Notes under the pieces: generated by a model
What the model saw: only the letters and a program-made list of their open reading frames with translations
Database searches by the model: none
What the model was told of the DNA's origin: nothing
Translations under genes and position numbers: made by a program
In this document: piece after piece, positions 1 to 41,877 of the stretch
Position numbering within the stretch: the stretch's first letter is position 1
How the letters are laid out: each line of letters opens with the position of its first letter
Source: a virus
Virus genome (UHGV): UHGV-0025826
DNA length: 41,937 bases
Reading direction: 5' to 3' (one strand)

Positions 1-79
1 CTGGGCCGATGCTGACCCGTACGTAGCGGCAGGAGTCTATGAACACGTTTCAGTGAAACCATTTAAGAAAGTGTTCTAA
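1..79 (+). CDS. 3' end of a host ORF (partial); prophage integration target
   Basis: Open frame from position 2 ending ...YEHVSVKPFKKVF with stop at 77-79; the last six codons lie inside the 17-bp repeat also present at 41861-41877, where the stop is TGA instead of TAA. Confidence 0.4.
   Translation, partial: WADADPYVAAGVYEHVSVKPFKKVF
61..77. repeat. attL core: 17-bp direct repeat atttaagaaagtgttct
   Basis: Exact 17-bp match with 41861-41877; flanking bases differ on both sides. Confidence 0.6.
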
Positions 80-144
80 CTTATTAGAAATTTGCACTTA
101 AATCAAAAAGTTACGGACAATTCAACCACCAATCAATAAATTAA

Positions 145-192
145 AGGGCACATTAAAGTACACAATATTTGTGCCCTTCTCTGTTTCTTTCC
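145..192. terminator. Stem-loop (agggcaca...tgtgccct) with T-rich tract; likely terminator for the host ORF and/or the invertase gene
   Basis: 8-bp inverted repeat at 145-152 and 170-177 followed by tctctgtttcttt; A-rich on the other side. Confidence 0.4.
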
Positions 193-197
193 CGTTA

Positions 198-746
198 TCA
201 GCTAGCTGGAAACTTTTTATACAGAGTTGAGAGCCCTACTCCATACGTTTTTGATACGCTTTGTCGTGATTCACCGGTTGCCATCCGCTCCCCCATTTCC
301 CGCCATTGCTCATCCGTGAACTTAGGCCTGCGACCACCAACTCGCCCTTTTGCCCTGGCTACGGCCAGCCCTGCTAAGGTACGTTCGCTATTAAGATCAG
401 ATTCATATTGTGCTGCGGAAAGGATGTTACGAAAGTTATAGCGGCCGCTGGCTGTTTTGAGATCCACGCCATCGGTAATACTGCGGAAGTTGATACCCTT
501 TTCCTGTAACTGCTGGAACATCAACAGCGCATGCAGAACGTTGCGGCCTATCCTGTCCAGCTTCCAGACCACCAGTTCATCCCCCGGCTGCATAGTGGCG
601 ATCAGCCGTTTTAGAACCGGCCGATTCGATTTCCTCCCGCTGGCATGCTCTTCAAAAATTTTCTCACAACCCGCTGACTTGAGCGCCGTTAGTTGCAATT
701 CAGTGTCCTGGTGGTTTGTTGATACTCGGGCATAACCGTAAATCAT
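198..746 (-). CDS. Serine recombinase, DNA invertase (Hin/Gin/Cin/Pin family)
   Basis: 182 aa; MIYGYARVSTNHQD...GDELVVWKLDRIGR...GRRPK...LSTLYKK matches the invertase catalytic domain and C-terminal HTH; lies next to the invertible fibre segment. Confidence 0.9.
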   Translation of the reverse strand: MIYGYARVSTNHQDTELQLTALKSAGCEKIFEEHASGRKSNRPVLKRLIATMQPGDELVVWKLDRIGRNVLHALLMFQQLQEKGINFRSITDGVDLKTASGRYNFRNILSAAQYESDLNSERTLAGLAVARAKGRVGGRRPKFTDEQWREMGERMATGESRQSVSKTYGVGLSTLYKKFPAS

Positions 747-751
747 GAGTG

Positions 752-778
752 CTTCTCCTGTTGTAAAAACAGGAGAAG
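752..778 (-). promoter_or_regulatory. Perfect 9-bp inverted repeat covering the invertase Shine-Dalgarno
   Basis: cttctcctg (752-760) and caggagaag (770-778) with a 9-nt loop; on the minus strand AGGAG lies 8 nt upstream of the ATG at 746. Confidence 0.35.
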
Positions 779-805
779 AGGCGAAATATCACCTGATTCA
801 GAAAA

Positions 806-831
806 ATATTTGAAAGGTTGGTTTGGGAGAA
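806..831. other. hix/gix-like 26-bp crossover site, left boundary of invertible segment
   Basis: Reverse complement TTCTCCCAAACC-AA-CCTTTCAAATAT; shares a 21-bp identical arm plus the AA core with the site at 2261-2286; resembles remembered hixL TTCTTGAAAACC-AA-GGTTTTTGATAA. Confidence 0.6.
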
Positions 832-1512
832 GCCAGATTCTCTGGTCGTTTGTTAAACACGAATATTTTTAAAAGCTCTGGAAAATATATCCCAACACCA
901 GGGACAAAAAAGATAAGGGTCATTGCCTCTGGTGGCGGTGGCGGCGGCGGTGGGGTTCCTGAAACAACAGAAAATCAGCAGGCAACAGCCGGAGCTGGAT
1001 TGAGCGGCGCATTTATTGAAGCATTTTTCGAGGTTGATAATGATTTCGAAGTCAACGTTATTATCGGTGCTGCAGGTAAAGGTGGGGGAGCCGGAAGAAA
1101 TTCAGGTAGTGAAGGTGGCACAACTTATTTCGGTTCCATGATAACTGCACCTGGTGGTACAGGCGGTGGCGCGGGGGGAGCATCTGCAAACACATCATAT
1201 ATTCAGGGTATTTCATGGGGTGCCAGTCCGACATCGTCCGGTACTGTACTAAGAGCATTTCGCTGTAGTGCAAAAACACCAGGAGCAATGGTTATCTCTG
1301 TTAAAGCTGTAGCAGGTGGTACCGGGGGGGATACACCATTAGGTTCAGGCGGTATAGGTGGTGCAAGTTCTTCATCATTCAGCGGACGTGGTGGTGGTAA
1401 AGCTGAGGGCTTTGGTGCTGGCGGAGGCGGAGCCTGCGCACCTGCTGGAAGTGAGGCTCAATCGGGAGGTGACGGTGCCCCGGGAATAGTTATTGTTGAG
1501 GAGTATGCCTGA
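814..1512 (+). CDS. Alternative tail fibre C-terminal domain (Gly-rich), silent in this orientation
   Basis: Frame is open from a stop at 811-813 with no ATG or RBS; begins GLGEAR directly after the crossover core, the same six residues that follow the core in the minus-strand fibre gene. Confidence 0.55.
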   Translation, partial: KVGLGEARFSGRLLNTNIFKSSGKYIPTPGTKKIRVIASGGGGGGGGVPETTENQQATAGAGLSGAFIEAFFEVDNDFEVNVIIGAAGKGGGAGRNSGSEGGTTYFGSMITAPGGTGGGAGGASANTSYIQGISWGASPTSSGTVLRAFRCSAKTPGAMVISVKAVAGGTGGDTPLGSGGIGGASSSSFSGRGGGKAEGFGAGGGGACAPAGSEAQSGGDGAPGIVIVEEYA

Positions 1513-1778
1513 TGAGTAATTTTGCTCTGATTGAACATGGCGTGGTGAAAAATATTATTATCTGGGATGGAGAGGGTGATTTATTCTCTAATTGCGAAAT
1601 TATAAATATTGATCATATAGATGCAGGCGTCGGTTGGTTCTATTCTGACGGAGAGTTTATAGCACCACCGGAACCGGAAATGACTGAATATGATGTTGGT
1701 AATATCGACGCGGTGATGGAAGCAGATACCAGCACCGCGCCGGGGGTTATCTGGCCAGTTCCACCTGAGATGGTTTAA
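1512..1778 (+). CDS. Putative tail fibre assembly/chaperone protein of the silent orientation
   Basis: 88 aa; start overlaps the upstream stop (TGATG); 3' end overlaps the minus-strand partner convergently; call is by position. Confidence 0.35.
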   Translation: MSNFALIEHGVVKNIIIWDGEGDLFSNCEIINIDHIDAGVGWFYSDGEFIAPPEPEMTEYDVGNIDAVMEADTSTAPGVIWPVPPEMV

Positions 1779-1944
1779 TCTCAATCAGAATGGGTTCGCC
1801 CTTCTTGTTAACAGATATTTCCATTCCTTCAGGGATTTCAGATGCAGTAAAAAACCAGTTATCTTCTGGTAATTCCACAGCCCCGGTCACGTCATGAAGA
1901 CCGGGGATTACTTCAGTCAAAGTAACAGGATTAAACAGGCGCAC
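1747..1944 (-). CDS. Putative tail fibre assembly/chaperone protein of the expressed orientation
   Basis: Frame open to 2034; GTG at 1944-1942 with GGAGAG 6 nt upstream lies just after the fibre stop; an alternative ATG is at 2007. Confidence 0.3.
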   Translation of the reverse strand: MRLFNPVTLTEVIPGLHDVTGAVELPEDNWFFTASEIPEGMEISVNKKGEPILIEIKPSQVELAR

Positions 1945-2668
1945 AATAAACTCTCCAGGAAAAAGCACTTGTTGATGGTCTTCCGTCGTACATCTGGCAG
2001 CGGACATAAAAACCTGTATTACTGACCTGGTCATCCACGATCATTGAAACGTGAACGTTATTAGGTGTGGCTTCGTAATCTGTTCTTATTCTTTCCGCTA
2101 TGCTGATAAAACGTGAAAGTTTAGGTAGTGCAATTGGATAAACGACTTTAGCCAGCCCATTATCATTGGAACCACCAGTTCCAAATACTTCTATTGCACC
2201 ATCTGACCAGCGTATCCATGCACCATTGACATTAGCTCCTCGCTGAATGACATATCTGGCTTCTCCCAAACCAAGGTTTGCGAGACCGTTTTTTGACGTT
2301 AATACAGGAGTCCATTTTGCTGATGGCGGCTGGCTACCAATATTTGCATTTTGTAAGGACTGATAAGATTCACCGTTATGTGTGCAGATCGAACCGATAT
2401 GATATTCCTGTTCTGCATGCCACTCTGGAACCCCCATTTGGTGCTGATACGCAATGAACTGACTCATTGCATACATTGCCGCATTGAAGTCCTCAAGCGA
2501 GGGGTGTTCGGAAGCGCCAACAATGCCCCATCCGCGAAGGAAAGATGCCGTAATTTGCGAGGTCAGGTCATCCGCCTGATTTGTTCCACCAAACACGGTT
2601 CTTTCCATTCCCTGTGCATCAGAGGCAAAAGCCCGAACATCTCCCTGATATCGTACAATCTTAGACAT
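1931..2668 (-). CDS. Tail fibre protein (constant N-terminal part plus currently expressed variable C-terminus)
   Basis: 245 aa; the crossover site lies in-frame inside the gene (..KNGLANL|GLGEARYVIQRG..); follows the baseplate genes. Confidence 0.6.
   Translation of the reverse strand: MSKIVRYQGDVRAFASDAQGMERTVFGGTNQADDLTSQITASFLRGWGIVGASEHPSLEDFNAAMYAMSQFIAYQHQMGVPEWHAEQEYHIGSICTHNGESYQSLQNANIGSQPPSAKWTPVLTSKNGLANLGLGEARYVIQRGANVNGAWIRWSDGAIEVFGTGGSNDNGLAKVVYPIALPKLSRFISIAERIRTDYEATPNNVHVSMIVDDQVSNTGFYVRCQMYDGRPSTSAFSWRVYCAPV
2261..2286. other. hix/gix-like 26-bp crossover site, right boundary, inside the tail fibre gene
   Basis: ttctcccaaacc-aa-ggtttgcgagac; inverted copy of the site at 806-831. 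Confidence 0.6.
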
Positions 2669-3383
2669 GGATTTTCCTCGAAAAAAAACCGCCCTGGTAG
2701 GCGGTATTAAACTTGCTGGCGAATCCTCTGGCCGAAGGGTTTCGCGAGAAACCGAATGTCAGACCAGGAGTCACCTGATAAAAATAATCGTATCGAACGC
2801 CCGCAGGTTTCGGCAGCAGGCCAAGCTTCACAATCAGGCGTAACTCTTCAACTGATACCCGCGGCGAAACGTTCAAAGCAAGCGTCATGTCTTTTCTGTC
2901 GGTCACGTAAGCTTCGCCGTTGAAAGCCGTCTGTATAACATCCTGCAGGCTGACCCGATCGTCTGACGCTATCGTTGCACCTGCGGCGTTTCGCGCAATT
3001 TTGACCCGAAGGAACCTGCGATACTCATTGTCAGCCAGTTGATAGTCACCATATGCCGGCGAAAACTTGCTGTAGAAAGGTGCGCCGACATACGCCGCAT
3101 TAGATTTACTGTCGAAGCCTGCGGTATTCAGATGTCCGTCAAACCCGAAAAATACACGGGCAATAACAGCAGGCACACTACGGTGAAGGCCGACTATCCG
3201 GCCAATGACATCAAGCCGGTATCCGGTAACCCGGTCGAGATCAAAGTTATCTGGGTTACGAATAAAATCGGCGATGATTTGCCAGTGCCTGAGCATGGCT
3301 TGTATCTCTGATCTTGCTTTTTTCTTTTCCCAATATTGTTTGATGAGCATTAGCGTGTAGCGGTTAATGATGTCGTCATTCAC
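2661..3383 (-). CDS. Baseplate protein (P2 gpI / Mu gp48-like)
   Basis: 240 aa; sits between the baseplate J-like gene and the tail fibre; overlapping stop/start with neighbours. Confidence 0.5.
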   Translation of the reverse strand: MNDDIINRYTLMLIKQYWEKKKARSEIQAMLRHWQIIADFIRNPDNFDLDRVTGYRLDVIGRIVGLHRSVPAVIARVFFGFDGHLNTAGFDSKSNAAYVGAPFYSKFSPAYGDYQLADNEYRRFLRVKIARNAAGATIASDDRVSLQDVIQTAFNGEAYVTDRKDMTLALNVSPRVSVEELRLIVKLGLLPKPAGVRYDYFYQVTPGLTFGFSRNPSARGFASKFNTAYQGGFFSRKIHV

Positions 3384-4561
3384 TGGACCACCTCGTTAAC
3401 GTCTATATTTTCCACACTCAACGTGAACTTTCCCTGAAAGCCTGGCGATAACTCAGCATCGGTGTAATCTGCCCCATTACTGCTAATTTGCAGATTGGTC
3501 AGCACAAAATTTACCCGTCCTACCCCATACCCATTCTCATAAAATTCATTGGCATCCACAGACTCACCAATATGCATGGTGCGTGATGCAAGAGATTTTT
3601 TGAGAGTATCGATATCTATCGGTTCGCTTTGAATCTTCCGGCGGGCATTAAGCCTGATATGAAGCGGCTTATAGATGGGCCGATCAAACTGAAGTTCATG
3701 GGCTATCAGAAATGAAGTGCCGTCAGGCCGAATCAGGGTCTCGGTAAAACGTCCGGTTATGCTGCCTTTCGTTCCCGTTCCACCGCCTTTCTGTTTAACC
3801 ATCACCTCCACAATTTCTGAAATCGCTCCCCCCTCAACGACCAGCCATATTGAATTGGCCGGGATACCCGTCGTCGGATTATCAATTTTTGTGTCGTTCT
3901 CTCCGATATTCAGATCAATTACACCTGTCAGTTGAGCAACTTTAGCGAAAACCGCCCCAGTGCTACCTGTTGCCGGGTTCTCAAGCGACCGGTTCCGGCG
4001 TTGCCTGAATTCTTCAGGCGTTTCCTCATCCCGACCGACCACAACCGCGGAATCAGAGATAATGCTCACAATCCCTGGTTCTGGTGTGAGTTGAGTGAAG
4101 GTGTCGTTCACAAGCCCAGTAACTTTCCCAAAGTTTTGAGCAAAAAAGGTGGCTGTTGTGACGCCCGCCGGAACGGTCACGTCCTGTCGGATAGCCCAGA
4201 CCTGATTTGCCTGGTCCCGTATCTTATACCCGCTATAGAGAAGCACCGGCCTGTCTGTTGTGACTTTAAGGTCACGCTGAGACCGGGAGCCGGGGCGAAG
4301 GAAAAGCCCGTGAAGTTTGGCGATAATCTGCTGCATATCACCTGTATTAAAATCGGGGTCCATTTGGGAATAAAGCCATTGCAGCGCGGCTTCAATATCT
4401 GCCCGAGCCTGAGCTTCGATTGCCACGCGTTGACCGTCGGGAGATTCCTGGTCTAAATCGATATCCTGACCATAAATTCCCTTATATCCGTCGCTCAGTT
4501 CCTGAAATAACTCCCGGAGAGTGCTTGTCTCAAGGCCGTTGTCGCTAAACTGTAGTGCCAT
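3380..4561 (-). CDS. Baseplate J-like protein (P2 gpJ / Mu gp47-like)
   Basis: 393 aa; size and position typical of baseplate J in Mu/P2-type tail modules. Confidence 0.7.
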   Translation of the reverse strand: MALQFSDNGLETSTLRELFQELSDGYKGIYGQDIDLDQESPDGQRVAIEAQARADIEAALQWLYSQMDPDFNTGDMQQIIAKLHGLFLRPGSRSQRDLKVTTDRPVLLYSGYKIRDQANQVWAIRQDVTVPAGVTTATFFAQNFGKVTGLVNDTFTQLTPEPGIVSIISDSAVVVGRDEETPEEFRQRRNRSLENPATGSTGAVFAKVAQLTGVIDLNIGENDTKIDNPTTGIPANSIWLVVEGGAISEIVEVMVKQKGGGTGTKGSITGRFTETLIRPDGTSFLIAHELQFDRPIYKPLHIRLNARRKIQSEPIDIDTLKKSLASRTMHIGESVDANEFYENGYGVGRVNFVLTNLQISSNGADYTDAELSPGFQGKFTLSVENIDVNEVVQ

Positions 4562-4925
4562 TCTTCAACGCTCCGTTGACCGGGAAGGTGATCGTCTGCT
4601 GGTCATAGACGGTCTCAATGCTGAGTTCGATTTTTTGTGACCGGGTGGCCTTATTGACCTCCATCGCCAGAGCGGTAATGCGCATAACCCCATCCGTCGC
4701 CAGCGTCACGCGCTCTATCTCCCGCAGAATCTCCTGCTCGGTGTTTTTCTCTGATAACAGGTAAAGCCAGTCGATGTTGTCATCCATGTTGAGAGGATTA
4801 TCGTTTTTGAACGAGCGGATCCGGCATTTGGCTTTCTGCGCGATAGCAGCACCGCCAGTTATATAGTTTGCCTTCCCGCGCCCAAATCCCCAGTCGTCAT
4901 TTTTATCAAGTGCTGAAACAATCAT
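4545..4925 (-). CDS. Baseplate wedge protein (GPW/gp25-like)
   Basis: 126 aa; upstream of and overlapping the J-like gene. Confidence 0.5.
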   Translation of the reverse strand: MIVSALDKNDDWGFGRGKANYITGGAAIAQKAKCRIRSFKNDNPLNMDDNIDWLYLLSEKNTEQEILREIERVTLATDGVMRITALAMEVNKATRSQKIELSIETVYDQQTITFPVNGALKNGTTV

Positions 4926-5539
4926 GAGATCTCCGTGACAATACCGTTGGTAACTGTGATTGTTTTCCCGTCATCGCTTCGAAATGAACCAGACACCCCA
5001 GACTTACCGCCTGTCTTTACCTGGGAATATTGAAGTACATTCAGAACATCGCATTCTTCCAGAGTCGTCTTACCATCTTTCTGGGTAATATTTCCTGTGA
5101 GGTTTAAATCACCCTCGTGGTCAGAATCCCCCTTCATCATCCTGTTCTTCTTAGGGATATTGATCGCGGTAGCCTGTGGGTTAACCCCACACAGAGCGAA
5201 GCCATCTGAATAATCGTGCATACGCATTTCAAGTGGTGAAACAAAGTCGCTACCCGCATACCAAGCGTCATAACAACGCTCAGAGATAAGGACGAGGCAA
5301 TAGTCACCAGCCGCAATTGGTTCGGCGATATAACTATCACCGCCTTGCAAAATTACCGGGGGGACTTCAATGAACTCTGGGAGTTGCTTGCTGCTCCCTT
5401 TCACAACCCGATTGATAACGGGGACGCAACTGATTGTTTTGTCATTTACAGACGTTATTTTTGCGACAACAATGGTGTGAACATCGGCCAGAGCAAATTC
5501 AACACCCAGGCCGATAGTGTCGTGAAGTTCTTCGATCAT
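4922..5539 (-). CDS. Baseplate assembly/spike protein (P2 gpV / Mu gp45-like)
   Basis: 205 aa; position upstream of the gp25-like gene. Confidence 0.5.
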   Translation of the reverse strand: MIEELHDTIGLGVEFALADVHTIVVAKITSVNDKTISCVPVINRVVKGSSKQLPEFIEVPPVILQGGDSYIAEPIAAGDYCLVLISERCYDAWYAGSDFVSPLEMRMHDYSDGFALCGVNPQATAINIPKKNRMMKGDSDHEGDLNLTGNITQKDGKTTLEECDVLNVLQYSQVKTGGKSGVSGSFRSDDGKTITVTNGIVTEIS

Positions 5540-5654
5540 AAATTAAGCCCATAAAAAACCGCCAGAGTGGGTTCAATGGATGGCTAGATAAATACTCATA
5601 CTAATCGCCGTAGAGCGAACCTGCGCCAGCGTTTAATACTAAGGAGAGTCACTC

Positions 5655-6188
5655 ATGGGATTCAAATTCAGACAGCGCATCAAAATTGCACCAGGCATTC
5701 ATATAAACATAGGTAAAACAGGCATTACTAGCGCATCAATTGGTAAGGCTGGTGCTACCCTGAACGTTGGTAAAAAAGGGGTAAAGGCAACCGCAGGCAT
5801 TCCCGGTACCGGTTTGTCTTACACGAGTGGAAACTTGCTCGCGGGTCAAAAGAACTCCACCGGTAAACACGCTGAGAACGTAGAGGAACAAGCACCTGAG
5901 CGGCTTGGTTTCTTTTCGGACTCAACGTTGTTAGAGGATGGTCAGGAAGATATTCAACCACCTCGCCCATTGGTCATGGTATTAACCCATAAGCAATTTA
6001 GAAAACTATCAACCGAGGAGAAAACGGCATTTAAAAATGCAGGTGGTAAGGTGAAGTTTTCAATAGGCGAGAAAATTTTTATTCTCACAGTCATTATTTT
6101 TGCTCTTGGCTGGCTTTCAGATCGTCACCCACCAGAAAAAACCAATTCCAGCGTAACGCAAGAAGTAAAATCTTCAGTTAACAACTGA
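5655..6188 (+). CDS. DUF4236-like protein with a C-terminal transmembrane segment; opposite-strand moron in the baseplate operon
   Basis: 177 aa; N-terminus MGFKFRQRIKIAPGIHINIGKTGITSASIGKAGATLNVGKKGVKATAGIPGTGLSYT matches the remembered DUF4236 signature; hydrophobic IFILTVIIFALGWL near the C-terminus; AAGGAGAG RBS; looks AT-richer than its neighbours by eye. Confidence 0.6.
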   Translation: MGFKFRQRIKIAPGIHINIGKTGITSASIGKAGATLNVGKKGVKATAGIPGTGLSYTSGNLLAGQKNSTGKHAENVEEQAPERLGFFSDSTLLEDGQEDIQPPRPLVMVLTHKQFRKLSTEEKTAFKNAGGKVKFSIGEKIFILTVIIFALGWLSDRHPPEKTNSSVTQEVKSSVNN

Positions 6189-7121
6189 GTAATTTCCGGC
6201 AGGCTGGCATACCACCTTCTGATACCAGGCTGCCCCGTTGTTCTGCCCGCTGGTTTCAATCTGGTATATCTTATAAACCCCGTTTAACGCGGGGTTCGTC
6301 ACGCTTTCAACAGCGCAAAGCCCACCGATCACCAGCATAGGATTCAGTTTCGTATCGAATACGATCTGCCCTTTCGAGGATTTGGCTAAGGTACTCGAGT
6401 CAGTATCTTTTTTGCCTGCCGGATCCGTATCAGGCTCATTGGTTGGCATCTTGGCTTTCTTCCCCCCGTCATCCTGTGCGCTAATCTTCGTTGCCTGAGG
6501 CGTATTTAGCAGACCGCTACGCGCATTCACGACTGGAATGTTACCCGATGTAACCTCATTAGCCTTGAGGATGTGGACGCGCTCATCTTTGATGAAAAAT
6601 GACTCGTCGGACGCAAGGGTATCGGTAAGAATTTTACTGGAGCTACCTACCAGAACCTTCGGCCTGATGAGTGCTTGTTGCTTCGTCACAGAGCCTTTTT
6701 TCGTGTTTGGCATATCCTGCAAGACAGAATCGACGACCTGATCTTTCCCGCGTACCGTGCGCGATGTGAAAGCGTTGATATAGTCGTGGCCACCGTCTTC
6801 ACATTCCAGGCTGACGATGTGGATCGCCCCCTCACGCTTTACTGCTCCGCTTTTAACCGAACCCTGAAATACCTGGCGCAGCTTGCCGTCGTAACCAACC
6901 TCGAGTCGAACGGGGATATACTTCTCTTCATCTTCGGACTTGAGCAATTGCAGACGCGTGGAAGGCTTTAGCCCGTTGATGGACACACTCAGCTTGCCGA
7001 GTGACTTCTTGTCCACAGTTTCCAGCGCCTTGAATGACACGGTGATCGGTGGCTCGATAATCACTGCTTGATTGCCGATCCCCACCGTCAGCCGATAATC
7101 ACGGTAAAAAGTATCCATCAC
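6174..7121 (-). CDS. Baseplate hub protein (Mu P / P2 gpD-like)
   Basis: 315 aa; position between TMP-proximal tail genes and the spike gene. Confidence 0.45.
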   Translation of the reverse strand: MMDTFYRDYRLTVGIGNQAVIIEPPITVSFKALETVDKKSLGKLSVSINGLKPSTRLQLLKSEDEEKYIPVRLEVGYDGKLRQVFQGSVKSGAVKREGAIHIVSLECEDGGHDYINAFTSRTVRGKDQVVDSVLQDMPNTKKGSVTKQQALIRPKVLVGSSSKILTDTLASDESFFIKDERVHILKANEVTSGNIPVVNARSGLLNTPQATKISAQDDGGKKAKMPTNEPDTDPAGKKDTDSSTLAKSSKGQIVFDTKLNPMLVIGGLCAVESVTNPALNGVYKIYQIETSGQNNGAAWYQKVVCQPAGNYSVVN

Positions 7122-7453
7122 GGCACGTCTCCCCCGCGAATATCAATCATCTCTTCCGGCGTGACCAGATACATTTCGATGCGACCACTGGCGAAGTCGT
7201 CAGCCCGATATGGGTCAATGCCGGAATTGTCAGCGCAAAGTAACACAACGTCGAAAGGCCAGTTCTTGTGCCGAAAATGTAGCGTCCCGAGGGACAGCTT
7301 CACGCCGTCGATGTAATCACCGTTGTACTCCACGCGCATTTTCCACATTTCAACCGTAGGCAGATAACGAATAGTGACCACAGCCTCACCACGGTCAAAA
7401 ATCAGAACATGCCGCTGGATAGGTTCGTCAGTGATGTTGGTTATCGGATCCAT
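7118..7453 (-). CDS. Phage tail protein, unknown function
   Basis: 111 aa; translationally coupled inside the tail operon. Confidence 0.4.
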   Translation of the reverse strand: MDPITNITDEPIQRHVLIFDRGEAVVTIRYLPTVEMWKMRVEYNGDYIDGVKLSLGTLHFRHKNWPFDVVLLCADNSGIDPYRADDFASGRIEMYLVTPEEMIDIRGGDVP

Positions 7454-7465
7454 ACGTTGCTCTCA

Positions 7466-8272
7466 TTAGAATAAAGATTTCGCCGCCCCTTTTAACGAGG
7501 TCATGACTGATTTTGACTGGCTGGTCCCGTTACTTTTTTTAGAATTATCAGCGGGCGTCTGCGCCCCCTTATTAGCAACGCCCGCCGTTTTTGATTTAGC
7601 AGCTGCCGAGGGGGATTTGAAGTGCTGCTCAATCGGTGCGGTAGTCAGTTGCGTGAAGGTGATTTTTGTAAAACTGGCTTCAAACTTAGTTTCCATCGTT
7701 TGATTGTCGGTACTGATGGTCAGGCCGCTTAACGCCATATTTTCATGGGTGCGATAATCCACCTCCACGGAAATAAGCTGCTTGCCGTAGTACACCCCCT
7801 CAATGAAGTCGAGAAATTGCTCGCGTATACCTTTAGCGCCACCAGTAGACGGGTTGCCCACCAGCCCAAACAGGTCGGCTCCTTTATCAGCCAGGCGTTT
7901 TGCCTTTAAGATGGCCTGCTCTGCGCGGTCGGCAATCTCATTCATTTTTTGCAACTGCTGCTGCGTCTTTGCGGGGATGTACTCCAGCACCTCACCATAC
8001 TTCGAATAATCTGGCATCAGGCTAAAAGAAGAGTTTGGTTTCGCATCGACAAAAATATCGGCAACAACACCGCTGATTTTTATCGTCAGCGGGCCATTGA
8101 TAATGTCGTCTGACGCGTTACTGCCATCCTCCAGCACGTCTACAGGAACCTGAGACGGGTATTCAGTAGCATCGCTCACTCGGGCAAACATTGAGAACCC
8201 GCCGATCCCTACCTTTTTAACAGTATCTTTGCCAGAAGATTGCGCCTGCATGAGGCCGTCTAGAATCCCCAT
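7466..8272 (-). CDS. Phage tail protein (possibly DNA-circulation N-like)
   Basis: 268 aa; immediately downstream of the tape measure gene, the position Mu gpN occupies. Confidence 0.4.
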   Translation of the reverse strand: MGILDGLMQAQSSGKDTVKKVGIGGFSMFARVSDATEYPSQVPVDVLEDGSNASDDIINGPLTIKISGVVADIFVDAKPNSSFSLMPDYSKYGEVLEYIPAKTQQQLQKMNEIADRAEQAILKAKRLADKGADLFGLVGNPSTGGAKGIREQFLDFIEGVYYGKQLISVEVDYRTHENMALSGLTISTDNQTMETKFEASFTKITFTQLTTAPIEQHFKSPSAAAKSKTAGVANKGAQTPADNSKKSNGTSQSKSVMTSLKGAAKSLF

Positions 8273-10134
8273 TACCGACCTCCTCTGCCACTCAACCGGT
8301 TGGCATCCTTCATGTTTTGTTGCAGGCTATCTGCCGCAGTATTCCCGGCGACAACCGGATCGGATGTGTTGATGTGAATCGTGTTCTGCTGGCTGACGCT
8401 TGAATTGCTTGTCACGCCACCACCACCGAGTCCCACCGCAGCATTCATGCCGTAAGGAATACCACCAGGACTCATGCCGCCGTTACCGCCGCCGGTTACT
8501 CCCTGCTGCTGTTCATCCTCACCGACCCCGAAGAATGACTTTGTCGCATTCCAGGCATTTGAAGCAGCGTTGCTGATAATATTGCTGATGTATTCCCCCA
8601 GCCCAGCAAAGATGTTTTTCGCCCAGTCAATAAAAGCCGTGAATGGTTTTTTCATCAGTTCGACGCCGTTATCGAAGATTTTTACCACATCCCCCCATGC
8701 ACCTTCAAAATCGCCAGCGACTAACTTCCATAGTGCTGAGAACATCAGCTTCGTGTTTTCGATGGCAGTAGTGAATACATCAACGACAAACGCGCCGGCA
8801 TCGCCAAACACGTATTTAATCGCATCACCAACGACACCAAATGCACCAGTGATAAACGCTATAAGAGAATCAAAGATATTCTGCGCATCCTTCATCGCAC
8901 CCTGAAAATCACCCGTAAACGCACCTGTGATGAGATGCCACACCATCCTGAACATGGAGGCAATCGCATCAGCAAGCGGTTTAAACACGCCAATAGCGTA
9001 GTTTATGAAAGCCATGAGCGACGCTTTCGCCTCTTTCAGTGCGGGAACAATATCTATTCCCCAGTTATCTTTGAAGAAATCAGCAATAACGCTTTGGCCA
9101 CCTTCCATAGCCGTCAGCAAATCATCGATAACAAGAACGACAGCGATAATGGCGGCAGTGATCAGTACGACAGGAGAGAATATGGTTGCCAGCACCGCTC
9201 TAAGTCCTATAGCAGCAATTTTCCAGGCTACAAATCCGGTGGTAATAAGACCAATAATCGGCAGGAAGCGACGGATCATACCCATAACGGAGAAGATAAT
9301 TTCCCCAAGATGGGCCAGCCCGTTTTTGATGAGATCCTTATTAGCAATGAGAATGTCCGTAAACCCATCCACCAGGTCTTTCAGTACCGGCACAAATCCG
9401 ACGGCAACCTGAAATTTGATACCATCAAAGCCTTTCCCCAGCGTTGTCAGAGAATCGTTGTAGGCTGCAAACTGATCGGCCTGGTCTTGCGTGACAACAC
9501 CAAGCGCCTCGGCCTTGTTCTGCAACGAAGATATTTCTTCGCCCGTCATGGATAGCAACTGCACCATGGAACGGTCGATACCCATCTTATCCAGAACAGA
9601 AAACTTCTCTGCCTGGCTCATGCCGTGCAGTTTGTCGGCCAGTTCACGAAATATCACATCGGAGTTTTTTACCTGCCCGTTCATATCCTTGAACTGAAGG
9701 CCCAGCCTTTCCGCAACGTCTTTCGCCTCCCCCTCACCGGTGGAAACGAACTCCCCCACTCTTTTTGTCATCTCACCTAGCGAAGCCTGCAACGCATCAA
9801 CACTTGAGCCATTTACAGACGCCGCGTAACCCAGTGACTGAACGGTCTCGATCGCCACCCCCGTTTCCCGGGAGAACTGGACCAGCGGATCAATAGACTG
9901 ACTGACAGACGTCACCCAGCCAGCAACCCCCGCAGCCGAACCGGCGATAGCGGCTCCAAGCCCGGCAAGCAAACCAATAGATGCTTTCAGATTTGCATTG
10001 AAGGTTTCCTGCGGCGCCAGATTACCGATAAAACCGAATTTGGTAATAAGCTCGTTAACTATCGCCATTCCGCGCCTTCTCCATCTCGTAGTGTTGAATG
10101 TCTGCGCTGATATTCTCGAACTCAAGCATGTCAA
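8272..10134 (-). CDS. Tail tape measure protein
   Basis: 620 aa; Gly/Ala-rich with long central hydrophobic segments; between chaperone and baseplate genes; start may be the internal ATG at 10068. Confidence 0.8.
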   Translation of the reverse strand: MTCLSSRISAQTFNTTRWRRRGMAIVNELITKFGFIGNLAPQETFNANLKASIGLLAGLGAAIAGSAAGVAGWVTSVSQSIDPLVQFSRETGVAIETVQSLGYAASVNGSSVDALQASLGEMTKRVGEFVSTGEGEAKDVAERLGLQFKDMNGQVKNSDVIFRELADKLHGMSQAEKFSVLDKMGIDRSMVQLLSMTGEEISSLQNKAEALGVVTQDQADQFAAYNDSLTTLGKGFDGIKFQVAVGFVPVLKDLVDGFTDILIANKDLIKNGLAHLGEIIFSVMGMIRRFLPIIGLITTGFVAWKIAAIGLRAVLATIFSPVVLITAAIIAVVLVIDDLLTAMEGGQSVIADFFKDNWGIDIVPALKEAKASLMAFINYAIGVFKPLADAIASMFRMVWHLITGAFTGDFQGAMKDAQNIFDSLIAFITGAFGVVGDAIKYVFGDAGAFVVDVFTTAIENTKLMFSALWKLVAGDFEGAWGDVVKIFDNGVELMKKPFTAFIDWAKNIFAGLGEYISNIISNAASNAWNATKSFFGVGEDEQQQGVTGGGNGGMSPGGIPYGMNAAVGLGGGGVTSNSSVSQQNTIHINTSDPVVAGNTAADSLQQNMKDANRLSGRGGR

Positions 10135-35516: not shown

Positions 35517-38500
35517 ATGGAATTCTTTAATGTGGTTAAAGCCACTCAGAAATCCGGAAAGCAAGATGCAGTGGTCTGGTTCACTGCTAAAACCGAGGCT
35601 CGCGCCAATCTGATGCTGGATGTTGCGCTGGAAGATGCAGGTATCGAAACAGGTCGGGGTAAGGACTACGCCAAACCGATTCGCACTGATTTCCCAGTTG
35701 TCGACGGTCTGCCGAAAGAAGGTGAAGTTGATTTTACCTGGTGTGATCGCTACGAGCTTCAGGACGATGGGCGCACCTGGCTGCCAAAAGCCGCTGGTGT
35801 GTCTACTGGTTCCGTTGACGCCCCCTACACACCTACTCCGACCGTAATCGTTGAAGATGCGACTGCGTCCGAAATTGTCCCGGTTGAAAACCGTACTCCA
35901 GCGGTCCGCTTTGCCGTCCATCTGATGAACGATAAATACCAAACCCACGTCACTAAAGAGCAGCAGTTGGCTGCCAGCGAAATGTCACTGGATGAAGGCA
36001 ATACATATCTCCATAGCCTGCTTGTGGCAAGGAACGATGTGCCCGCGACCGCCAAACTCAGCCTGAATGCTGAGTGGAAAATGATTCGGGCGGTTAAGGA
36101 CATTTTCACACCAGACGAAGAGCACGAACCAAGATTGATCGCTGCATTCATGTCTGACTGGGTGAACACCGATGCCGGTGACCGCAATCAACTGGTAGAA
36201 GACTGGCGCAGTGGTAAGTTGCAGTTGCTCAAAACTGAAACCAGCAACGCTGCTGACGTTACAACTGGTCAAGATCTCACTGTTGAGGACGGTATCCAGA
36301 CCGACGAGAACGGCCGGGCAGAAGGTGGCGTCGTTGATGGTGAAGTCGATACCGAAGAGCAATCCCAGCAGACACAGCAACCGAACCTGATCGTTGTTGC
36401 CACCCTGCCATTCCGCCAGCGCGTACTGGCTCAGTTCATCGGTGATGGTGAATATCTCTATCACATCGACGCAGGGCAGAAAAATGAGATTGTCCGCCTT
36501 GAGATGGACACCGATGACGCGTACGTCCAGAACCTGCTGCTGGCAGCTGAGAATGTGGAAGCATTCAAAAAAGCCATTGAGCACGATATTCATAAAGTCG
36601 TGAATGCCGTTAAGAAAGTCTTCCCTGTCGATGGTAAAAAACCGGAGCTGGCAACAGTTATCCAGTTCCTGACTGTGTGGTTCAACACTGATTACATCGA
36701 CCGTGGCCTGCTGGTCAAGGAATGGCAGAAAGGTAACCGCGTTGCGCAGATTCAACGTACTGACGTCAAAACCAATGCTGGCGGTGGAAATAAGACCGAT
36801 CGTAATACCGACTATGTCCACACACTGGACACTTTGGATGTTGAAATTGCGCTGGCCACCTTGCCAATGGATTTCAATATCTACGACATACCTGGTGGGG
36901 TCTACCGTCGCGCTAAAGAGATTGTCAGCAAGAAAGAAAGTCCGTTCAGCGAATGGTCTGAGGCGCTGCGCAAAACCGCTGGCATCCTGGACTATTCACG
37001 CGCCGCCATCTTTGCACTCATCCGCGGCACATCATCAGAATTGGTTAACTTTCCTGGGCGGTTGCGGGCATATATCAATGCCAATCTAACCGAAAATGAC
37101 CACTCAAACCTCTCAGAAGAAACGCTGGCTGATGCTGGTCATGCGCCGGACGTCAGCTGGGAAAATGAGGTTAATGAGCAGGTCGCTGCAGAGCAGAAAA
37201 CAGCTGCTAAACAGCCACAAATCGCCAACATGGGCAACGGCGTATTCTCCATTGATGGCCTGATGGGCGATCAACAAACACAAACAGATAACCGTTCACC
37301 ACTTAATGAGGAAACCACCAGCAATGTGCAGATGGAAGAAACTGTCAGTGATGAAGAACAGGCTGGTGATGAAGTGCAGTCAGGCGAAAGCAGTCTGGAA
37401 ACTGGTGAAGAGTCACATACCGGCCAGCAAGCCGATGTGAGCCAGAATGCGGATTCTGTTAGCCAAAACAGCGATTCTGTAAACCAAACCGAACCGGTTG
37501 CGGCCCAAACCGAGCCAGAAGCTCAATCTGACGAACCGGGTGTTGTGTACCCTGCTTACTTCGAACCTGGCCGCTATGAAGGTCTGCCGAACGAGGTTTA
37601 CCACGCTGCCAACGGCATCAGTTCCACCCAGGTAAAAGATGCGCGCGTTTCGCTGATGTACTTCAATGCGCGCCACGTTGAGAAAACCATCGTCAAAGAG
37701 CGCTCCTCAGTGCTGGACATGGGAAACCTGGTACATGCGCTGGCGTTGCAGCCAGAACAGCTCGATGAAGAATTTAGCGTTGAACCCGTAATTCCGGAAG
37801 GTGCATTTACCACCACGGCAACGATCCGCGCGTTTATTGATGAGTACAACGCCAGCCTGCCAGCGCAACTGAGCGCAGACGATATCAAAGCTTTGCTGGA
37901 TGAATACAACGCCACCCTGCCAGCGCTGGTGCCGCTGGGCGCTAGCCTGGATGAAACGGCGCAGAACTATATGGCGCTGCCAGCTGAATTCCAACGTATC
38001 GATGCAGATCAGAAGAAGACAGCAACAGCAATGAAGGCGTGCATCAAAGAGTACAACGCCACCCTGCCAGCGCAGATTAAAACCAGCGGCAGCCGCGACG
38101 CACTACTCGAACAACTTGCGATTATCAATCCTGACCTGGTCGCGCAGGAAGCTCAGAAGCTGCAACCGCTGAAAGTCTCTGGCACGAAGGCCGATCTGAT
38201 TCAGGCCGTGAAGGCAGTCAAACCAGATGCAGTGTTCGCCGACGAGCTGCTCGATGCGTGGCGCAACAACCCGGAAGGGAAAGTGCTGGTTACCCACCAG
38301 CAACTTGCCACCGCGCAGGCAATTCAGTCAGCACTGCTCTCGCACCCGACCGCAGGCATGCTGCTAACCCACCCGAGCCGCGCCGTTGAGGTGAGCTACT
38401 TTGGCTTTGACGAGGAGACGGGACTGGAAGTTCGTGTGCGCCCTGACCTTGAGATCGACCTAGACGGCGTGCGTATCGGTGCTGACCTGAAAACCATCAG

Positions 38501-38840
38501 CATGTGGAATGTTAAGCAGGAAAGCCTGCGCGCCAGGCTACACCGGGAAATTATTGAACGTGATTATCACCTGAGCGCGGCTATGTACTGCGAAACCGCA
38601 GCGCTGGATCAGTTCTTCTGGATTTTCGTCAACAAAGACGAGAACTACCACTGGATCGCCATCATCGAGGCATCCGCTGAACTACTGGAGCTGGGTATGC
38701 TCGAGTACCGCAAAGCGATGCGCAATATCGCAACCGGATTCGACACAGGTGAATGGCCAGCGCCAATCACTGCTGACTACACCGACGAACTGAACGACTT
38801 CGACCTGCGCCGCCTTGAAGCGCTGCGTACTCAGGCATAA
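35517..38840 (+). CDS. RecE-like exonuclease (exonuclease VIII-type, long N-terminal extension)
   Basis: 1107 aa; acidic low-complexity middle; directly upstream of a RecT/Redbeta-like annealase; GAGGA RBS; nuclease-domain assignment is positional. Confidence 0.55.
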   Translation: MEFFNVVKATQKSGKQDAVVWFTAKTEARANLMLDVALEDAGIETGRGKDYAKPIRTDFPVVDGLPKEGEVDFTWCDRYELQDDGRTWLPKAAGVSTGSVDAPYTPTPTVIVEDATASEIVPVENRTPAVRFAVHLMNDKYQTHVTKEQQLAASEMSLDEGNTYLHSLLVARNDVPATAKLSLNAEWKMIRAVKDIFTPDEEHEPRLIAAFMSDWVNTDAGDRNQLVEDWRSGKLQLLKTETSNAADVTTGQDLTVEDGIQTDENGRAEGGVVDGEVDTEEQSQQTQQPNLIVVATLPFRQRVLAQFIGDGEYLYHIDAGQKNEIVRLEMDTDDAYVQNLLLAAENVEAFKKAIEHDIHKVVNAVKKVFPVDGKKPELATVIQFLTVWFNTDYIDRGLLVKEWQKGNRVAQIQRTDVKTNAGGGNKTDRNTDYVHTLDTLDVEIALATLPMDFNIYDIPGGVYRRAKEIVSKKESPFSEWSEALRKTAGILDYSRAAIFALIRGTSSELVNFPGRLRAYINANLTENDHSNLSEETLADAGHAPDVSWENEVNEQVAAEQKTAAKQPQIANMGNGVFSIDGLMGDQQTQTDNRSPLNEETTSNVQMEETVSDEEQAGDEVQSGESSLETGEESHTGQQADVSQNADSVSQNSDSVNQTEPVAAQTEPEAQSDEPGVVYPAYFEPGRYEGLPNEVYHAANGISSTQVKDARVSLMYFNARHVEKTIVKERSSVLDMGNLVHALALQPEQLDEEFSVEPVIPEGAFTTTATIRAFIDEYNASLPAQLSADDIKALLDEYNATLPALVPLGASLDETAQNYMALPAEFQRIDADQKKTATAMKACIKEYNATLPAQIKTSGSRDALLEQLAIINPDLVAQEAQKLQPLKVSGTKADLIQAVKAVKPDAVFADELLDAWRNNPEGKVLVTHQQLATAQAIQSALLSHPTAGMLLTHPSRAVEVSYFGFDEETGLEVRVRPDLEIDLDGVRIGADLKTISMWNVKQESLRARLHREIIERDYHLSAAMYCETAALDQFFWIFVNKDENYHWIAIIEASAELLELGMLEYRKAMRNIATGFDTGEWPAPITADYTDELNDFDLRRLEALRTQA

Positions 38841-38845
38841 GGGGA

Positions 38846-39964
38846 ATGATGATGGAAAACACGAATATCGTAACCGCTGAACAGCAGACTCCAAACACGA
38901 TCTCAGCCAGCAATGCCATTTTCAACGTGCAGGCTTTAACCCAGCTTCAGTCTGTCGCCGGGTTGATGGCACAGGCAGCCGTAACGGTGCCTGAGCACCT
39001 CCGCGGCAATCCGGCAGACTGCATGGCCATCATCATGCAGGCGATGCAGTGGGGTATGAACCCTTACGCCGTGGCGCAAAAGACGCACCTGGTTAATGGT
39101 GTCCTGGGATACGAAGCGCAACTGGTTAATGCGGTGATCTCCAGCTCAAACGCCATCGTTGGCCGCTTTCACTATGAGTACGAGGGCGACTGGTCGAAAT
39201 GTGCCAGCAGCCGCGAGATAACCGTTAAAAAGCCTGCGAAAGGTGGCGGGACGTACGACAAGAAAGAAATGGTACGCGGTTGGGAAAGTGCTGATGAACA
39301 AGGACTGTCGGTACGGGTAGGTGCCGTTATTCGCGGTGAAAGTGATATCACCTGGGGAGAGCCTGTTTTCCTCTCCAGCGTAATCACACGTAATTCTCCA
39401 CTTTGGGTATCAAACCCGAAACAGCAGATCGCTTATCTGGCACTCAAATACTGGGCGCGCCTGTATTGCCCTGCAGTTGTTCTTGGTGTGTACACCCCTG
39501 ATGAGATTGAACAGCGCACAGAAAAAGAGATCAACCCAACGCCGCAACGCGTTAGCCTGGCTGATATCTCAGGTGACACCGTCACAACCACGCAAAGCGC
39601 ACAGGAATCGTCGGTAAATGTCGACTCTCTTGCCGATGATTTCCGCGAACGCATCGAATCTGCTCAGAACGTGGATAGCGCCAAATCGCTGCGTGCCGAC
39701 ATTGAAACGGCGAAAGCTACGCTGGGATCCGCACTATTCACCGAGCTGAAAAACAAAGCCGTAAAGCGTTATTACCTAGTGGATGCACGCAACAAGGTTG
39801 AGGAGGCTATTAAATCCCTGCCCCAGCCCGACGAGCCGCATGCATCCGAACGGTTCGCTGAAGCCGAGCGCATGCTTGCATCTTCAAAGCGTCACTTAGG
39901 CGATGAACTGCACGATCAATTCAGCATCACCCTGGCGGATATGAAACCGGAATACGTGGCCTGA
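38846..39964 (+). CDS. Single-strand annealing protein (RecT/Redbeta family)
   Basis: 372 aa; AMQWGMNPYAV resembles lambda Bet ANQYGLNPWTK and RecT; immediately downstream of the exonuclease. Confidence 0.6.
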   Translation: MMMENTNIVTAEQQTPNTISASNAIFNVQALTQLQSVAGLMAQAAVTVPEHLRGNPADCMAIIMQAMQWGMNPYAVAQKTHLVNGVLGYEAQLVNAVISSSNAIVGRFHYEYEGDWSKCASSREITVKKPAKGGGTYDKKEMVRGWESADEQGLSVRVGAVIRGESDITWGEPVFLSSVITRNSPLWVSNPKQQIAYLALKYWARLYCPAVVLGVYTPDEIEQRTEKEINPTPQRVSLADISGDTVTTTQSAQESSVNVDSLADDFRERIESAQNVDSAKSLRADIETAKATLGSALFTELKNKAVKRYYLVDARNKVEEAIKSLPQPDEPHASERFAEAERMLASSKRHLGDELHDQFSITLADMKPEYVA

Positions 39965-40286: not shown

Positions 40287-40484
40287 ATGGATGATATTTT
40301 GGTAACGTCAGACCTGACCAGTCGCTACAAAATTTCACGCAAAACCCTTTGGTCATGGCAAAGTGCAGACACAATGCCTCGGGGCTTCGTATGCCCGTTC
40401 CCACCCCCTGACTGGCCCGGCAACCCTAACCGCTGGCGCTCTGAGTCAATCAAAGAGTGGGAGGATAAAAAGAAGATAAATTAA
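40287..40484 (+). CDS. Excisionase / AlpA-family DNA-binding protein
   Basis: Start at ATG 40287 with GGAGAG upstream; SRKTLWSW...FP.P...G...W..SEIKEW pattern typical of AlpA/Xis; adjacent to and convergent with integrase. Confidence 0.55.
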
Positions 40485-41674
40485 CTGAAGGGCTCTCCGA
40501 TGATCTCTTCAAGATGGCTCTGCCAAACGCGGAGCCAGTGTTTCTGATCATCGATATAGTCATGAAGGTTGTAATGCGCCATAACCCCCACCATCTGATG
40601 CCCGAGCAGCTTTTCAATTACGTGCGGCGGGCAACCTAACTCAGAGAGATTTGTGGCTATCGTCCGCCTCATATCATGAAGCGACCACTCTGCCATACCT
40701 GTTCCATTCCAAATAGAACGGGCGTAATTGGATGCCACAGGTGAATGAACGGGCGAATCTTTGATCCCGCCATCAATTTTACGTTGTGAAGTCACCAGGT
40801 GATTGGTGTTTATTTTCTTGAGGTGATTTCTGACCAGGTTAACGGCGGCGTCTGAGAGTCCCCTTCTAATATGTACCCGAGTTTTATAACTGCCCGCAGG
40901 CACGACCCACTCATTATCATCCAATCGAAACCATGATCTCTCACTAAGTCGAATCTCAGCCGTACGGCATCCGGTAAGCATAATAAATTTCACCAGGAAA
41001 ACGGACTCTATCGACATATGGCTTTTCAACCACTGATAGATTTTGCGCAGATCGTCATCGTCCATCCTGCGAGTTCTCTTTTTAGGCTTTTGCCCGACAT
41101 CAGATGGCAGTAATCCCTCGAGTGGGTTTGAGGCGATCACACTTCTGTTAACGCAGAACCTAAACGCCCGTTTGCACAGCGAAAGCATGTAATGAGCCAT
41201 CACCCTGCTTTCTATAGAATCGAAGACGTTGATCCAGTGCATTTTCGCTGTGTTATCGACTTTGACATTCTTCATCGGTTCGGCGATATGTTTCTCAAAC
41301 ACCTGGCGATAGTAATCGACTTTAACTAGCCCGTTAGCGATACAGTGCCTTTCAATCCAGTAATTGAACGCTTCGGCAACGGACATCGCTTCCTGTCGGG
41401 TCTGCTTATCCAGCTTCACCTGCTCTCGCGGATCCAGTCCCTCAGTTAACCAGTTTCTGAATTGTTGGCGACGCTCTCTTGCCTGGGTGATACTCATTGC
41501 AGGATAATCACCAACATTGAGTTTTACCGCTTTACCGGCCCAGCGATACCGATAGAAAAATGATATTTTTCCGGCCTGGCTGATTCTGGCGTTGAGCCCG
41601 TGCGAATCAGAAATAATCTCGATATCATCTCTTTTCTTGCCGAGCGCCTTCCTGAGCTTTGTGTCGGTGATCAT
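40481..41674 (-). CDS. int: Tyrosine integrase (P4-like)
   Basis: Start set to ATG at 41674 ([10 protein letters not shown]...); N-terminal FFYRYRW arm-binding-like domain; catalytic HDMRRT and LLGH...HY motifs; adjacent to attR. Confidence 0.9.
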
Positions 41675-41860
41675 TGAATGGGTACACATTTTTGTTTTTG
41701 GGTACACAAAAGTGTACACAAAGTTGCCCACTCAAAGCTACACGCAATGTAACACTAGTTCGCAGAGTGTTATGGTTTACATCCTTGAAAGCCTGCTGGA
41801 TAAGGGTTTAGCGTAACAGAACGTTTTTACGCGGAATTGTTCGTAATATGCCAAATGACA

Positions 41861-41877
41861 ATTTAAGAAAGTGTTCT
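41861..41877. repeat. attR core: 17-bp direct repeat
   Basis: Exact match to 61-77. Confidence 0.6.

Follow-up and report, generated by a model that had tools for sequence, protein, structure and literature searches.

We analysed a 41,937-nt stretch of viral DNA, the genome UHGV-0025826 (the whole stretch is called the window here), and found that bases 818-2274 very probably form an invertible segment which switches the tip of a tail fibre on a constant N-terminal part, offering two specificities, and which is flipped by the PinL-type DNA invertase encoded beside it. The segment is 1,457 bp long, within the 1-4 kb range of the fibre-segment class. Both of its orientations exist in nature at precisely these sites.

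The segment lies between two 26-bp crossover sites. The left site (806-831) adjoins the invertase gene and reads, on the plus strand, ATATTTGAAAGG, the core TT (818-819) and GGTTTGGGAGAA; the right site (2261-2286) is inside the fibre gene, where it codes for ...NLGLGE..., and its reverse complement reads GTCTCGCAAACC, TT and GGTTTGGGAGAA. The plus strand thus has TT as the left core (818-819) and AA as the right one (2273-2274), which makes the sites truly inverted. An arm of 21 bp is identical at 818-838 and 2254-2274, and a repeat search lengthens it to 26 nt at 92%. The window contains this 21-mer exactly two times, once on each strand, even at up to three mismatches, and matches were found in none of 100 shuffles. 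Based on direct comparison with the annotated cixL and cixR of P1 and the boundaries of the Mu G segment, the sites are of the hix/gix/cix type; two positions separate the inner half-site TTGGTTTGGGAGAA from the inner half of P1 cix (TTGGTTTAAGAGAA). The left site has a perfect inner half-site and a poor outer one (ATATTTGAAAGG), and the outer half of the right site (GTCTCGCAAACC) is good. A poor outer half with GG by the core, as in the left site, is also a feature of hixR. The pattern AAACC-AA-CCTTT that adjoins the invertase also precedes PinL-type genes in several genera, and slightly altered forms of it precede genes of the pinE type. Concerning the PinL homologues of other genera, the inverted repeats upstream of them are mixed (arms of 65 nt in Morganella and 40 nt in Erwinia, none in several). 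A Min-type or shufflon-like multi-site system was rejected, as there is no third hix-like crossover site in the 41.9-kb window. A previous reading of the window, made from the sequence only, had claimed the two inverted 26-bp sites with their 21-bp arm and AA core, their resemblance to hix and gix, and the position of the right site in frame inside a minus-strand fibre gene; the sites were located exactly as placed, they match P1 cix and Mu gix, and the right one does lie in frame within the gene at 1931-2668.

That gene encodes the expressed tail fibre of 245 amino acids (aa) on the minus strand; its constant N-terminal part occupies 2275-2668 and its current variable tip 1931-2272, and it belongs to PHROG tail-fibre families. 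At 820-1512 on the plus strand there is a silent alternative fibre C-terminus, rich in glycine, which has no start codon or ribosome-binding site of its own and would be expressed only after inversion; the list of open reading frames (ORFs) gives this start-less frame as a 229-aa ORF at 823-1512, read from an internal TTG. The residues GLGEAR follow the core in both reading frames, and both products are joined at LGLGEAR; they share ...NGLANLGLGEAR and then split into YVIQRG... and FSGRLL..., the two tips being unrelated to each other in sequence. The sequence-only reading had pointed to the GLGEAR identity and to the continuation into a glycine-rich domain of 229 residues, which hold, and had set in-silico inversion beforehand as one of the checks that could overturn it. 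Inverting 818-2274 in silico produced an uninterrupted, in-frame fibre of 362 aa, in which the last 111 of the 245 fibre residues are exchanged for a glycine-rich tip of 228 residues, and a protein matching this fusion was found in E. coli assemblies.

The search with the 362-aa fusion returned a protein of the same length (P0001) with 99% identity and 100% coverage in an E. coli assembly. Its contig (L005) carries the same prophage at yciI: window positions 1-833 and 2254-8668 are collinear with it at 99.9%, the glycine-rich half (818-1756) is inverted and joined exactly at the site, and the other cassette half is a different module. That other module is fused to the constant N-terminus in a further protein (P0109, contig L022). 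L022 and L005 hold the same yciI prophage, with flanks that align collinearly (99.5-99.96%), and differ by an exact flip of 1,719 bp (99.6%), whose junctions share a 16-bp overlap within the repeat arms. The 1.46-kb segment of the window is itself found at 99% identity in approximately 27 complete E. coli genomes, in other prophage contexts. Two P2-like prophages (L003 and L004, with flanks ~95.5% identical) contain it in opposite orientations (99.1%), each fused in frame to a P2 H-type fibre at ...YLGLGEAR. The exact 245-aa fibre protein is present on 23 contigs of public assemblies, and at least 12 other C-termini are found on a 100%-identical constant N-terminus, with the junction mostly at LGLGE. 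In 5,426 complete E. coli genomes neither the window configuration nor its in-silico flip is present whole, and only the segment is found, in other prophage contexts. Inversion within E. coli cultures is documented for e14 and for a P2-like prophage (PMC4272514).

Two side observations concern these relatives. In L004 (E. coli OkiPb01677, 4928-5300) the glycine-rich tip stands in the expressed orientation with a frameshift that leaves a truncated product of 456 aa; either a mistake of the assembly in a G-rich run or a true loss of function may account for it. The sister cassette of strain VE-F5, of which no flipped copy was found in its own prophage among the same complete genomes, is also present at ~93% identity on E. 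coli plasmids of 94-96 kb (H123 and H124), beside a recombinase; the cassettes therefore circulate across prophages and plasmids, and these plasmids of ~95 kb could be P1-like.

Another explanation is that the segment is a frozen relic, a former switch no longer inverting here, like the orphan pinL of phi80. Phi80, mEp237 and HK225 share the pin-attP module with the window (97-99.7%) and have only a fibre fragment, without a second site; the PinL of phi80 is without its last 10 residues, at some PinL-type loci of other genera the sites are degenerate and an inverted repeat is missing within 3 kb, and the left site of the window has the poor outer half described above. However, the invertase of the window is full length, with its catalytic Ser and helix-turn-helix (HTH) present, the two sites have the same core and a perfect inner half each, neither alternative frame is interrupted, and sister prophages that are nearly identical are cleanly flipped against each other at these sites. 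We therefore consider a relic very improbable.

The invertase gene (198-746, minus strand) encodes 182 aa, with the catalytic Ser at residue 9, and begins 59 nt from the left site. It had been called Hin/Gin-type from the sequence, which is right in so far as the protein is full length with Resolvase and HTH_7 domains (Pfam, 3.6e-39 and 1.5e-9, respectively; PHROG 125 'DNA invertase', 6.5e-75) and among solved structures it is closest to Gin of Mu (3UJ3, aligned over residues 1-181 with no gaps at E = 1.4e-56), far ahead of resolvases (gamma-delta resolvase: 4e-25), but it is of the diverged PinL type and not a canonical Gin, Hin, Cin or Pin. The residues matching Ser10, Phe106 and Arg140 of Hin are kept. 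The protein is identical to phi80 PinL over 172 aa, and its identity to Gin, Cin and P2-like Pin is 52-54%, whereas those three are 76-79% identical among themselves. Twelve homologues from other Enterobacterales (loci L024-L035) are 62-88% identical to it and share helix E SGRYNFRNILSAAQYESDLNSERT, which is invariant in the PinL clade and replaces the canonical motif MGRFFFHVMGALAEMEREL; the clade is also found in Trabulsiella, Kluyvera, Pseudocitrobacter, Shimwellia, Apirhabdus, Citrobacter, Erwinia and Morganella. This helix E looks resolvase-like when set against that of gamma-delta resolvase. A promoter scan of the minus strand gave no convincing sigma-70-like promoter for pin.

Inversion may also take place with another catalyst, either a canonical Pin acting in trans or RecA acting on the 21-bp arms, although we think this unlikely. 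P2-like prophages serve the identical segment with a canonical Pin (76-79% identical to Gin and Cin), and PinL is without several residues that the characterised invertases conserve. Further Pin-type invertases capable of acting in trans are often present in E. coli strains, and the trans action of PinQ on e14 is documented (PMC12529663). Against this, helix E, the catalytic residues and the HTH are conserved in at least eight genera, which points to a selected and presumably active enzyme, the AAACC-AA-CCTTT pattern travels with PinL-type genes, and the breakpoints are inside the 26-bp sites. As for RecA, 21 bp is less than the usual length for efficient recombination, which counts against that part of the alternative.

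The PinL-type enzyme differs from the characterised invertases in the residues that connect them to Fis and the enhancer. Hin needs Fis and a recombinational enhancer through Gln151, Arg154, Leu155 and the basic residues 47, 48 and 51, described as 'uniquely conserved among DNA invertases' (McLean et al., PMC3798978). With Hin numbering taken as Gin numbering plus one, which reproduces the residue identities published for Gin and Cin, positions 151, 154 and 155 are E, E and R in the window and Q, R and L in Gin, Cin and P2-like Pin, and positions 47, 48 and 51 are K, R and A in the window. These contact positions vary freely across 13 sequences of the PinL clade, which thus does not show this hallmark of Fis contact. 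The helix E motif of Hin consists of Phe104-Phe105-Phe106-His107, Met109 and Leu112, where Phe105 and Met109 lock the inactive dimer, and the F105N mutant inverts faster, is Fis-independent and induces SOS (Chang et al., PMC4513852). At positions 104-107 the whole PinL clade has Y-N-F-R, with I at 109, A at 112 and Y in place of M115, so that the helix E hallmark is also lacking; the equivalent of the essential Phe106 is the only residue of the motif that is kept.

The P1 record annotates the recombinational enhancer of Cin at nt 19-90 of cin, and the positional match in the window, a candidate enhancer equivalent, is nt 19-90 of the invertase gene (657-728, minus strand). Its DNA identity to gin and cin is 67-68%, compared with 54-55% in nt 90-390. 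The first Fis-like element, GTATCAACAAA, is kept, and the distal Fis-like 15-mer is without its flanking G and C. Constraint at synonymous sites covers codons 1-24 only in the PinL clade, in contrast to two peaks in the canonical genes, a pattern that is suggestive for the enhancer region and not decisive. A scan for Fis sites with a crude GNNYRNNWNNYRNNC score did not discriminate even gin and cin. As judged from these comparisons, the system appears to work like a Gin/Pin switch but to fail two tested hallmarks of the Fis-dependent family. Because helix E differs and the Fis-contact residues of Hin are missing, PinL could be independent of Fis; that PinL-type invertases are a natural clade of tail-fibre invertases without a Fis enhancer, or under other control, is a tentative proposal, to which we give less weight than to its opposite.

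The leader of the invertase gene contains a hairpin over the ribosome-binding site (752-778, minus strand), with a perfect 11-bp stem (752-762 and 768-778) and a loop of 5 nt. The ribosome-binding site, AGGAG at 755-759, is contained in its 3' arm and precedes the ATG (744-746) by 8 nt. The 81-nt leader (725-805) folds at -27 kcal/mol (z = -4.4), the hairpin alone at -15.4 kcal/mol. A second small hairpin, GGUGA-uauu-UCGCC with 5 pairs, lies just upstream of it (780-793, minus strand), and one of its pairs is U-G or C-G among relatives. The stem over the ribosome-binding site, with 12 bp and a variable loop, is also found in Trabulsiella, Kluyvera, Pseudocitrobacter, Shimwellia and Apirhabdus. 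Its covariation amounts to one compensatory change from C-G to U-A, with 10 of the 12 pairs invariant; in a shuffle control 70 of 500 shuffles came up to the observed value on four of the five measures, and all 500 did so on the fifth. The support from covariation is therefore weak, given both the shuffles that reach the observed value and the invariant pairs. The pinE-type leaders are unrelated in sequence, and their ribosome-binding site is likewise paired with an upstream complement. No Rfam RNA family was found in 600-2400, and an intrinsic terminator was rejected for this hairpin, as no U-run follows the stem on either strand.

The best reading of the hairpin is that it attenuates translation of the invertase. 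A hairpin covering the ribosome-binding site had been reported from the sequence as having 9 bp; the position stands, and the stem has 11. The low invertase translation that was deduced from it finds modest comparative support in the compensatory pair and in the different hairpin at the same place in pinE-type leaders, and the role would follow from these. It is less probable, but a serious alternative, that the element does not attenuate translation and is an insulator against read-through from the late operon, a palindrome bound by a protein or an element of RNA stability. The invariance of 10 of the 12 pairs would fit sequence-specific recognition equally well, the late operon reads through the segment towards pin, and no convincing sigma-70 promoter for pin was found. 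On the other hand, the 3' arm is itself the ribosome-binding site, no U-run follows the stem on either strand, and both the paired sites of the pinE-type leaders and the change from C-G to U-A fit a role in translation better. If PinL is independent of Fis, the tight hairpin could keep a less strictly regulated recombinase scarce.

In the mechanism that we propose, the PinL-type invertase would bind the two inverted 26-bp sites, cut at the 2-bp core, exchange strands and flip the 1,457 bp between them. The fibre promoter, the start codon and the first 134 codons lie outside the segment and, because of this and since the right site is in frame, each orientation joins the constant N-terminus to one tip. 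The two states are the 111-residue tip (the 245-aa fibre, as in the window) and the 228-residue glycine-rich tip (the 362-aa fibre). Each tip flips together with its own downstream ORF, of 65 aa or of 88 aa (Tfa-like), for which roles as chaperones may be proposed. The phage progeny would then be a mixture of two receptor specificities, like that expected from Mu G, P1 C and e14 P, and by the same analogy the orientation probably changes the host range. The sequence-only reading had already seen here a host-range switch of the Mu G, P1 C and e14 type; the in-frame fusion and the natural flips bear out the switch, whereas its consequence for host range comes from analogy.

Several points weigh against this mechanism. 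The outer half of the left site fits poorly, and the hallmarks of a Fis-dependent enhancer are absent or unclear. The exact mirror of the window cassette was not found in its own prophage, the flips being those of the P2-like prophages and of the glycine-rich half in L005, and it is between isolates that both orientations are seen. Since other Pin-type invertases can act in trans, the flips do not prove that PinL is the catalyst.

The benefit of the inversion may also be mainly that of the lysogen, with a fibre chimera expressed from the prophage blocking receptors against other phages, like PinQ and StfE2 of e14. The architecture is the same here as in e14, where inversion of P yields a chimeric fibre that blocks adsorption of T2 (PMC12529663). 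The prophage of the window, however, looks intact, its fibre gene is at the end of the baseplate operon, so that late lytic expression is expected, and nothing points to expression in the lysogen; we hold this explanation to be quite unlikely.

The interior of the segment consists of two convergent halves: the plus-strand glycine-rich frame followed by the 88-aa ORF, and the minus-strand current tip followed by the 65-aa ORF. The glycine-rich tip matches Pfam Gly_rich_2 (1e-7) and PHROG 6202 'tail fiber protein' (5.8e-54). Its predicted structure has a pLDDT of ~90 over residues 141-362, and the model resembles the tail tip of mycobacteriophage Bxb1 and the fibre of cyanophage Pam3 and, more distantly, the glycine-rich domain of ALK/LTK. 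The 88-aa ORF (1512-1778, plus strand) flips with this tip and is probably a small Tfa-like tail-fibre assembly protein; it belongs to PHROG 14370 (unknown function), and it ends in the Tfa motif DTSTAPGVIWP, which can be aligned to a Caudo_TAP protein (E = 7e-6). The 65-aa ORF (1747-1944, minus strand), possibly a chaperone, has a GTG start, overlaps the fibre stop and lies downstream of the current tip; it belongs to PHROG 5400 (2.3e-22, unknown function), is called as a gene in public assemblies and by PGAP, and has no similarity to Caudo_TAP. Sister cassettes carry true Caudo_TAP genes. There is no NCBIfam equivalog for any part of the system.

At the 3' end of the 88-aa ORF, 55 bp (window 1702-1756) match the 3' ends of tfa genes in many phages unrelated to one another, such as HK97, SfIV and P2-like phages, and the module boundary in L005, at 1756, is the same point as this conserved end. 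Half-cassettes are therefore apparently swapped at the crossover sites and the tfa end, and 1702-1756 looks like the recombination joint. A further observation concerns the minus strand at 2678-2705, where a canonical-looking intrinsic terminator (ACCGCCT-ACCA-GGGCGGT and T8) is found inside the last codons of the DUF2612 wedge gene, directly before the ribosome-binding site of the fibre; it might throttle fibre expression or be a coincidence of coding.

A 20-bp direct repeat (58-77 and 41858-41877) coincides with the core region of phi80 attP, an integrase is encoded at 40481-41731 and the flanking gene is yciI, and from these the window is one prophage of 41.8 kb, of the myovirus type and integrated beside yciI. 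It looks intact, with a full head, tail, lysis module, RecET, integrase and att repeats. The fibre gene follows the genes of DUF2612/Wedge1, Baseplate_J, the sheath initiator and the spike, and is thus the last gene of the baseplate operon. In INPHARED (50,697 records) neither the structural module nor the segment content had a megablast or blastn match, and only the lysis genes and the 55-bp tfa 3' end match phages there; going by these searches, the lineage (window 2287-24000) has apparently not yet been isolated as a phage. A 177-aa DUF4236 ORF (5655-6188, plus strand) is found halfway through the baseplate operon on the other strand, is kept in all the sister prophages and may be a moron-type insertion. 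Near the integrase end (35517-39964) there are a RecE-like exonuclease of 1,107 aa, with an Exonuc_VIII N-terminus and a PDDEXK C-terminus, and RecT.

The mechanism has long been known: Mu, P1, e14 and P2-like prophages established it decades ago, and the system of the window adds little to the concept. It is of value for annotation, as the short fibre and the start-less glycine-rich ORF represent alternative states of a single gene, which PGAP-style annotation splits. The orphan pinL of phi80-like phages is explained as what is left of a complete module located at this same yciI site, and to judge from the shared sequence the module of the window could be the source of the phi80-type remnant. 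Fibre-tip cassettes that are 99% identical are common to unrelated tail types and are exchanged at crossover sites and tfa 3' ends. The only feature likely to surprise specialists might be the diverged PinL-type invertase without Fis-contact signatures. Should the clade need neither Fis nor the enhancer, it would be what nature offers as a counterpart to the hyperactive Hin and Gin mutants made in the laboratory, and how the enzyme stays selective for inversion would become the question.

Compared with known systems, the window is organised like Mu G/Gin: the invertase gene sits immediately beyond one end and points away from the segment, the other site is in frame in the fibre gene, a 26-bp site precedes the invertase start (by 66 nt in Mu and by 59 nt here), and the convergent halves each contain a fibre C-terminus and a downstream gene, for assembly in Mu and putatively so here. 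It differs in the length of the segment (1.46 kb vs 3 kb in Mu), in the downstream ORFs (65 and 88 aa vs U and U' of ~175 aa), in an invertase only 52% identical to Gin with another helix E, and in having one glycine-rich tip. With P1 C/Cin it shares nearly the same inner half-sites (TTGGTTTAAGAGAA in cix, TTGGTTTGGGAGAA here), one poor outer half-site and the exchange of fibre C-termini; however, cin is placed at the opposite end, is oriented towards the segment and has its 3' end overlapped by cixL, and the enhancer is annotated in P1 (cin nt 19-90), whereas here there is only a candidate equivalent. The Hin system of Salmonella also has 26-bp sites, a 2-bp core and a small serine invertase, but Hin flips a promoter and not a coding end, and its Fis/enhancer residues are not conserved here.

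The e14 P/PinE system and the P2-like Pin cassettes have the same left-site pattern, a 59-nt leader and a hairpin with the ribosome-binding site in it, and the P2-like cassettes contain the very same 1.46-kb segment (99% identical) in both orientations. These systems have a Pin invertase of the canonical kind, with 76-79% identity to Gin and Cin, and a P2 H-type fibre N-terminus; the window, by contrast, has a PinL-type invertase, a short fibre (245 or 362 aa) and a different baseplate, with DUF2612/Wedge1, a hub like E217 gp41 and a DUF3383 protein. The closest relatives of the recombination module itself are phi80 pinL and those of mEp237 and HK225, whose DNA is 97-99.7% identical to the window across the invertase, the leader with its 'IR3' inverted repeat, the left site and the attP core; phi80 also integrates at the same site beside yciI. 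Those phages are siphoviruses, where the orphan pinL is followed only by an internal fibre-fragment pseudogene, with no second site, and where PinL of phi80 ends 10 residues early, whereas the module of the window is complete and is attached to a real fibre gene.

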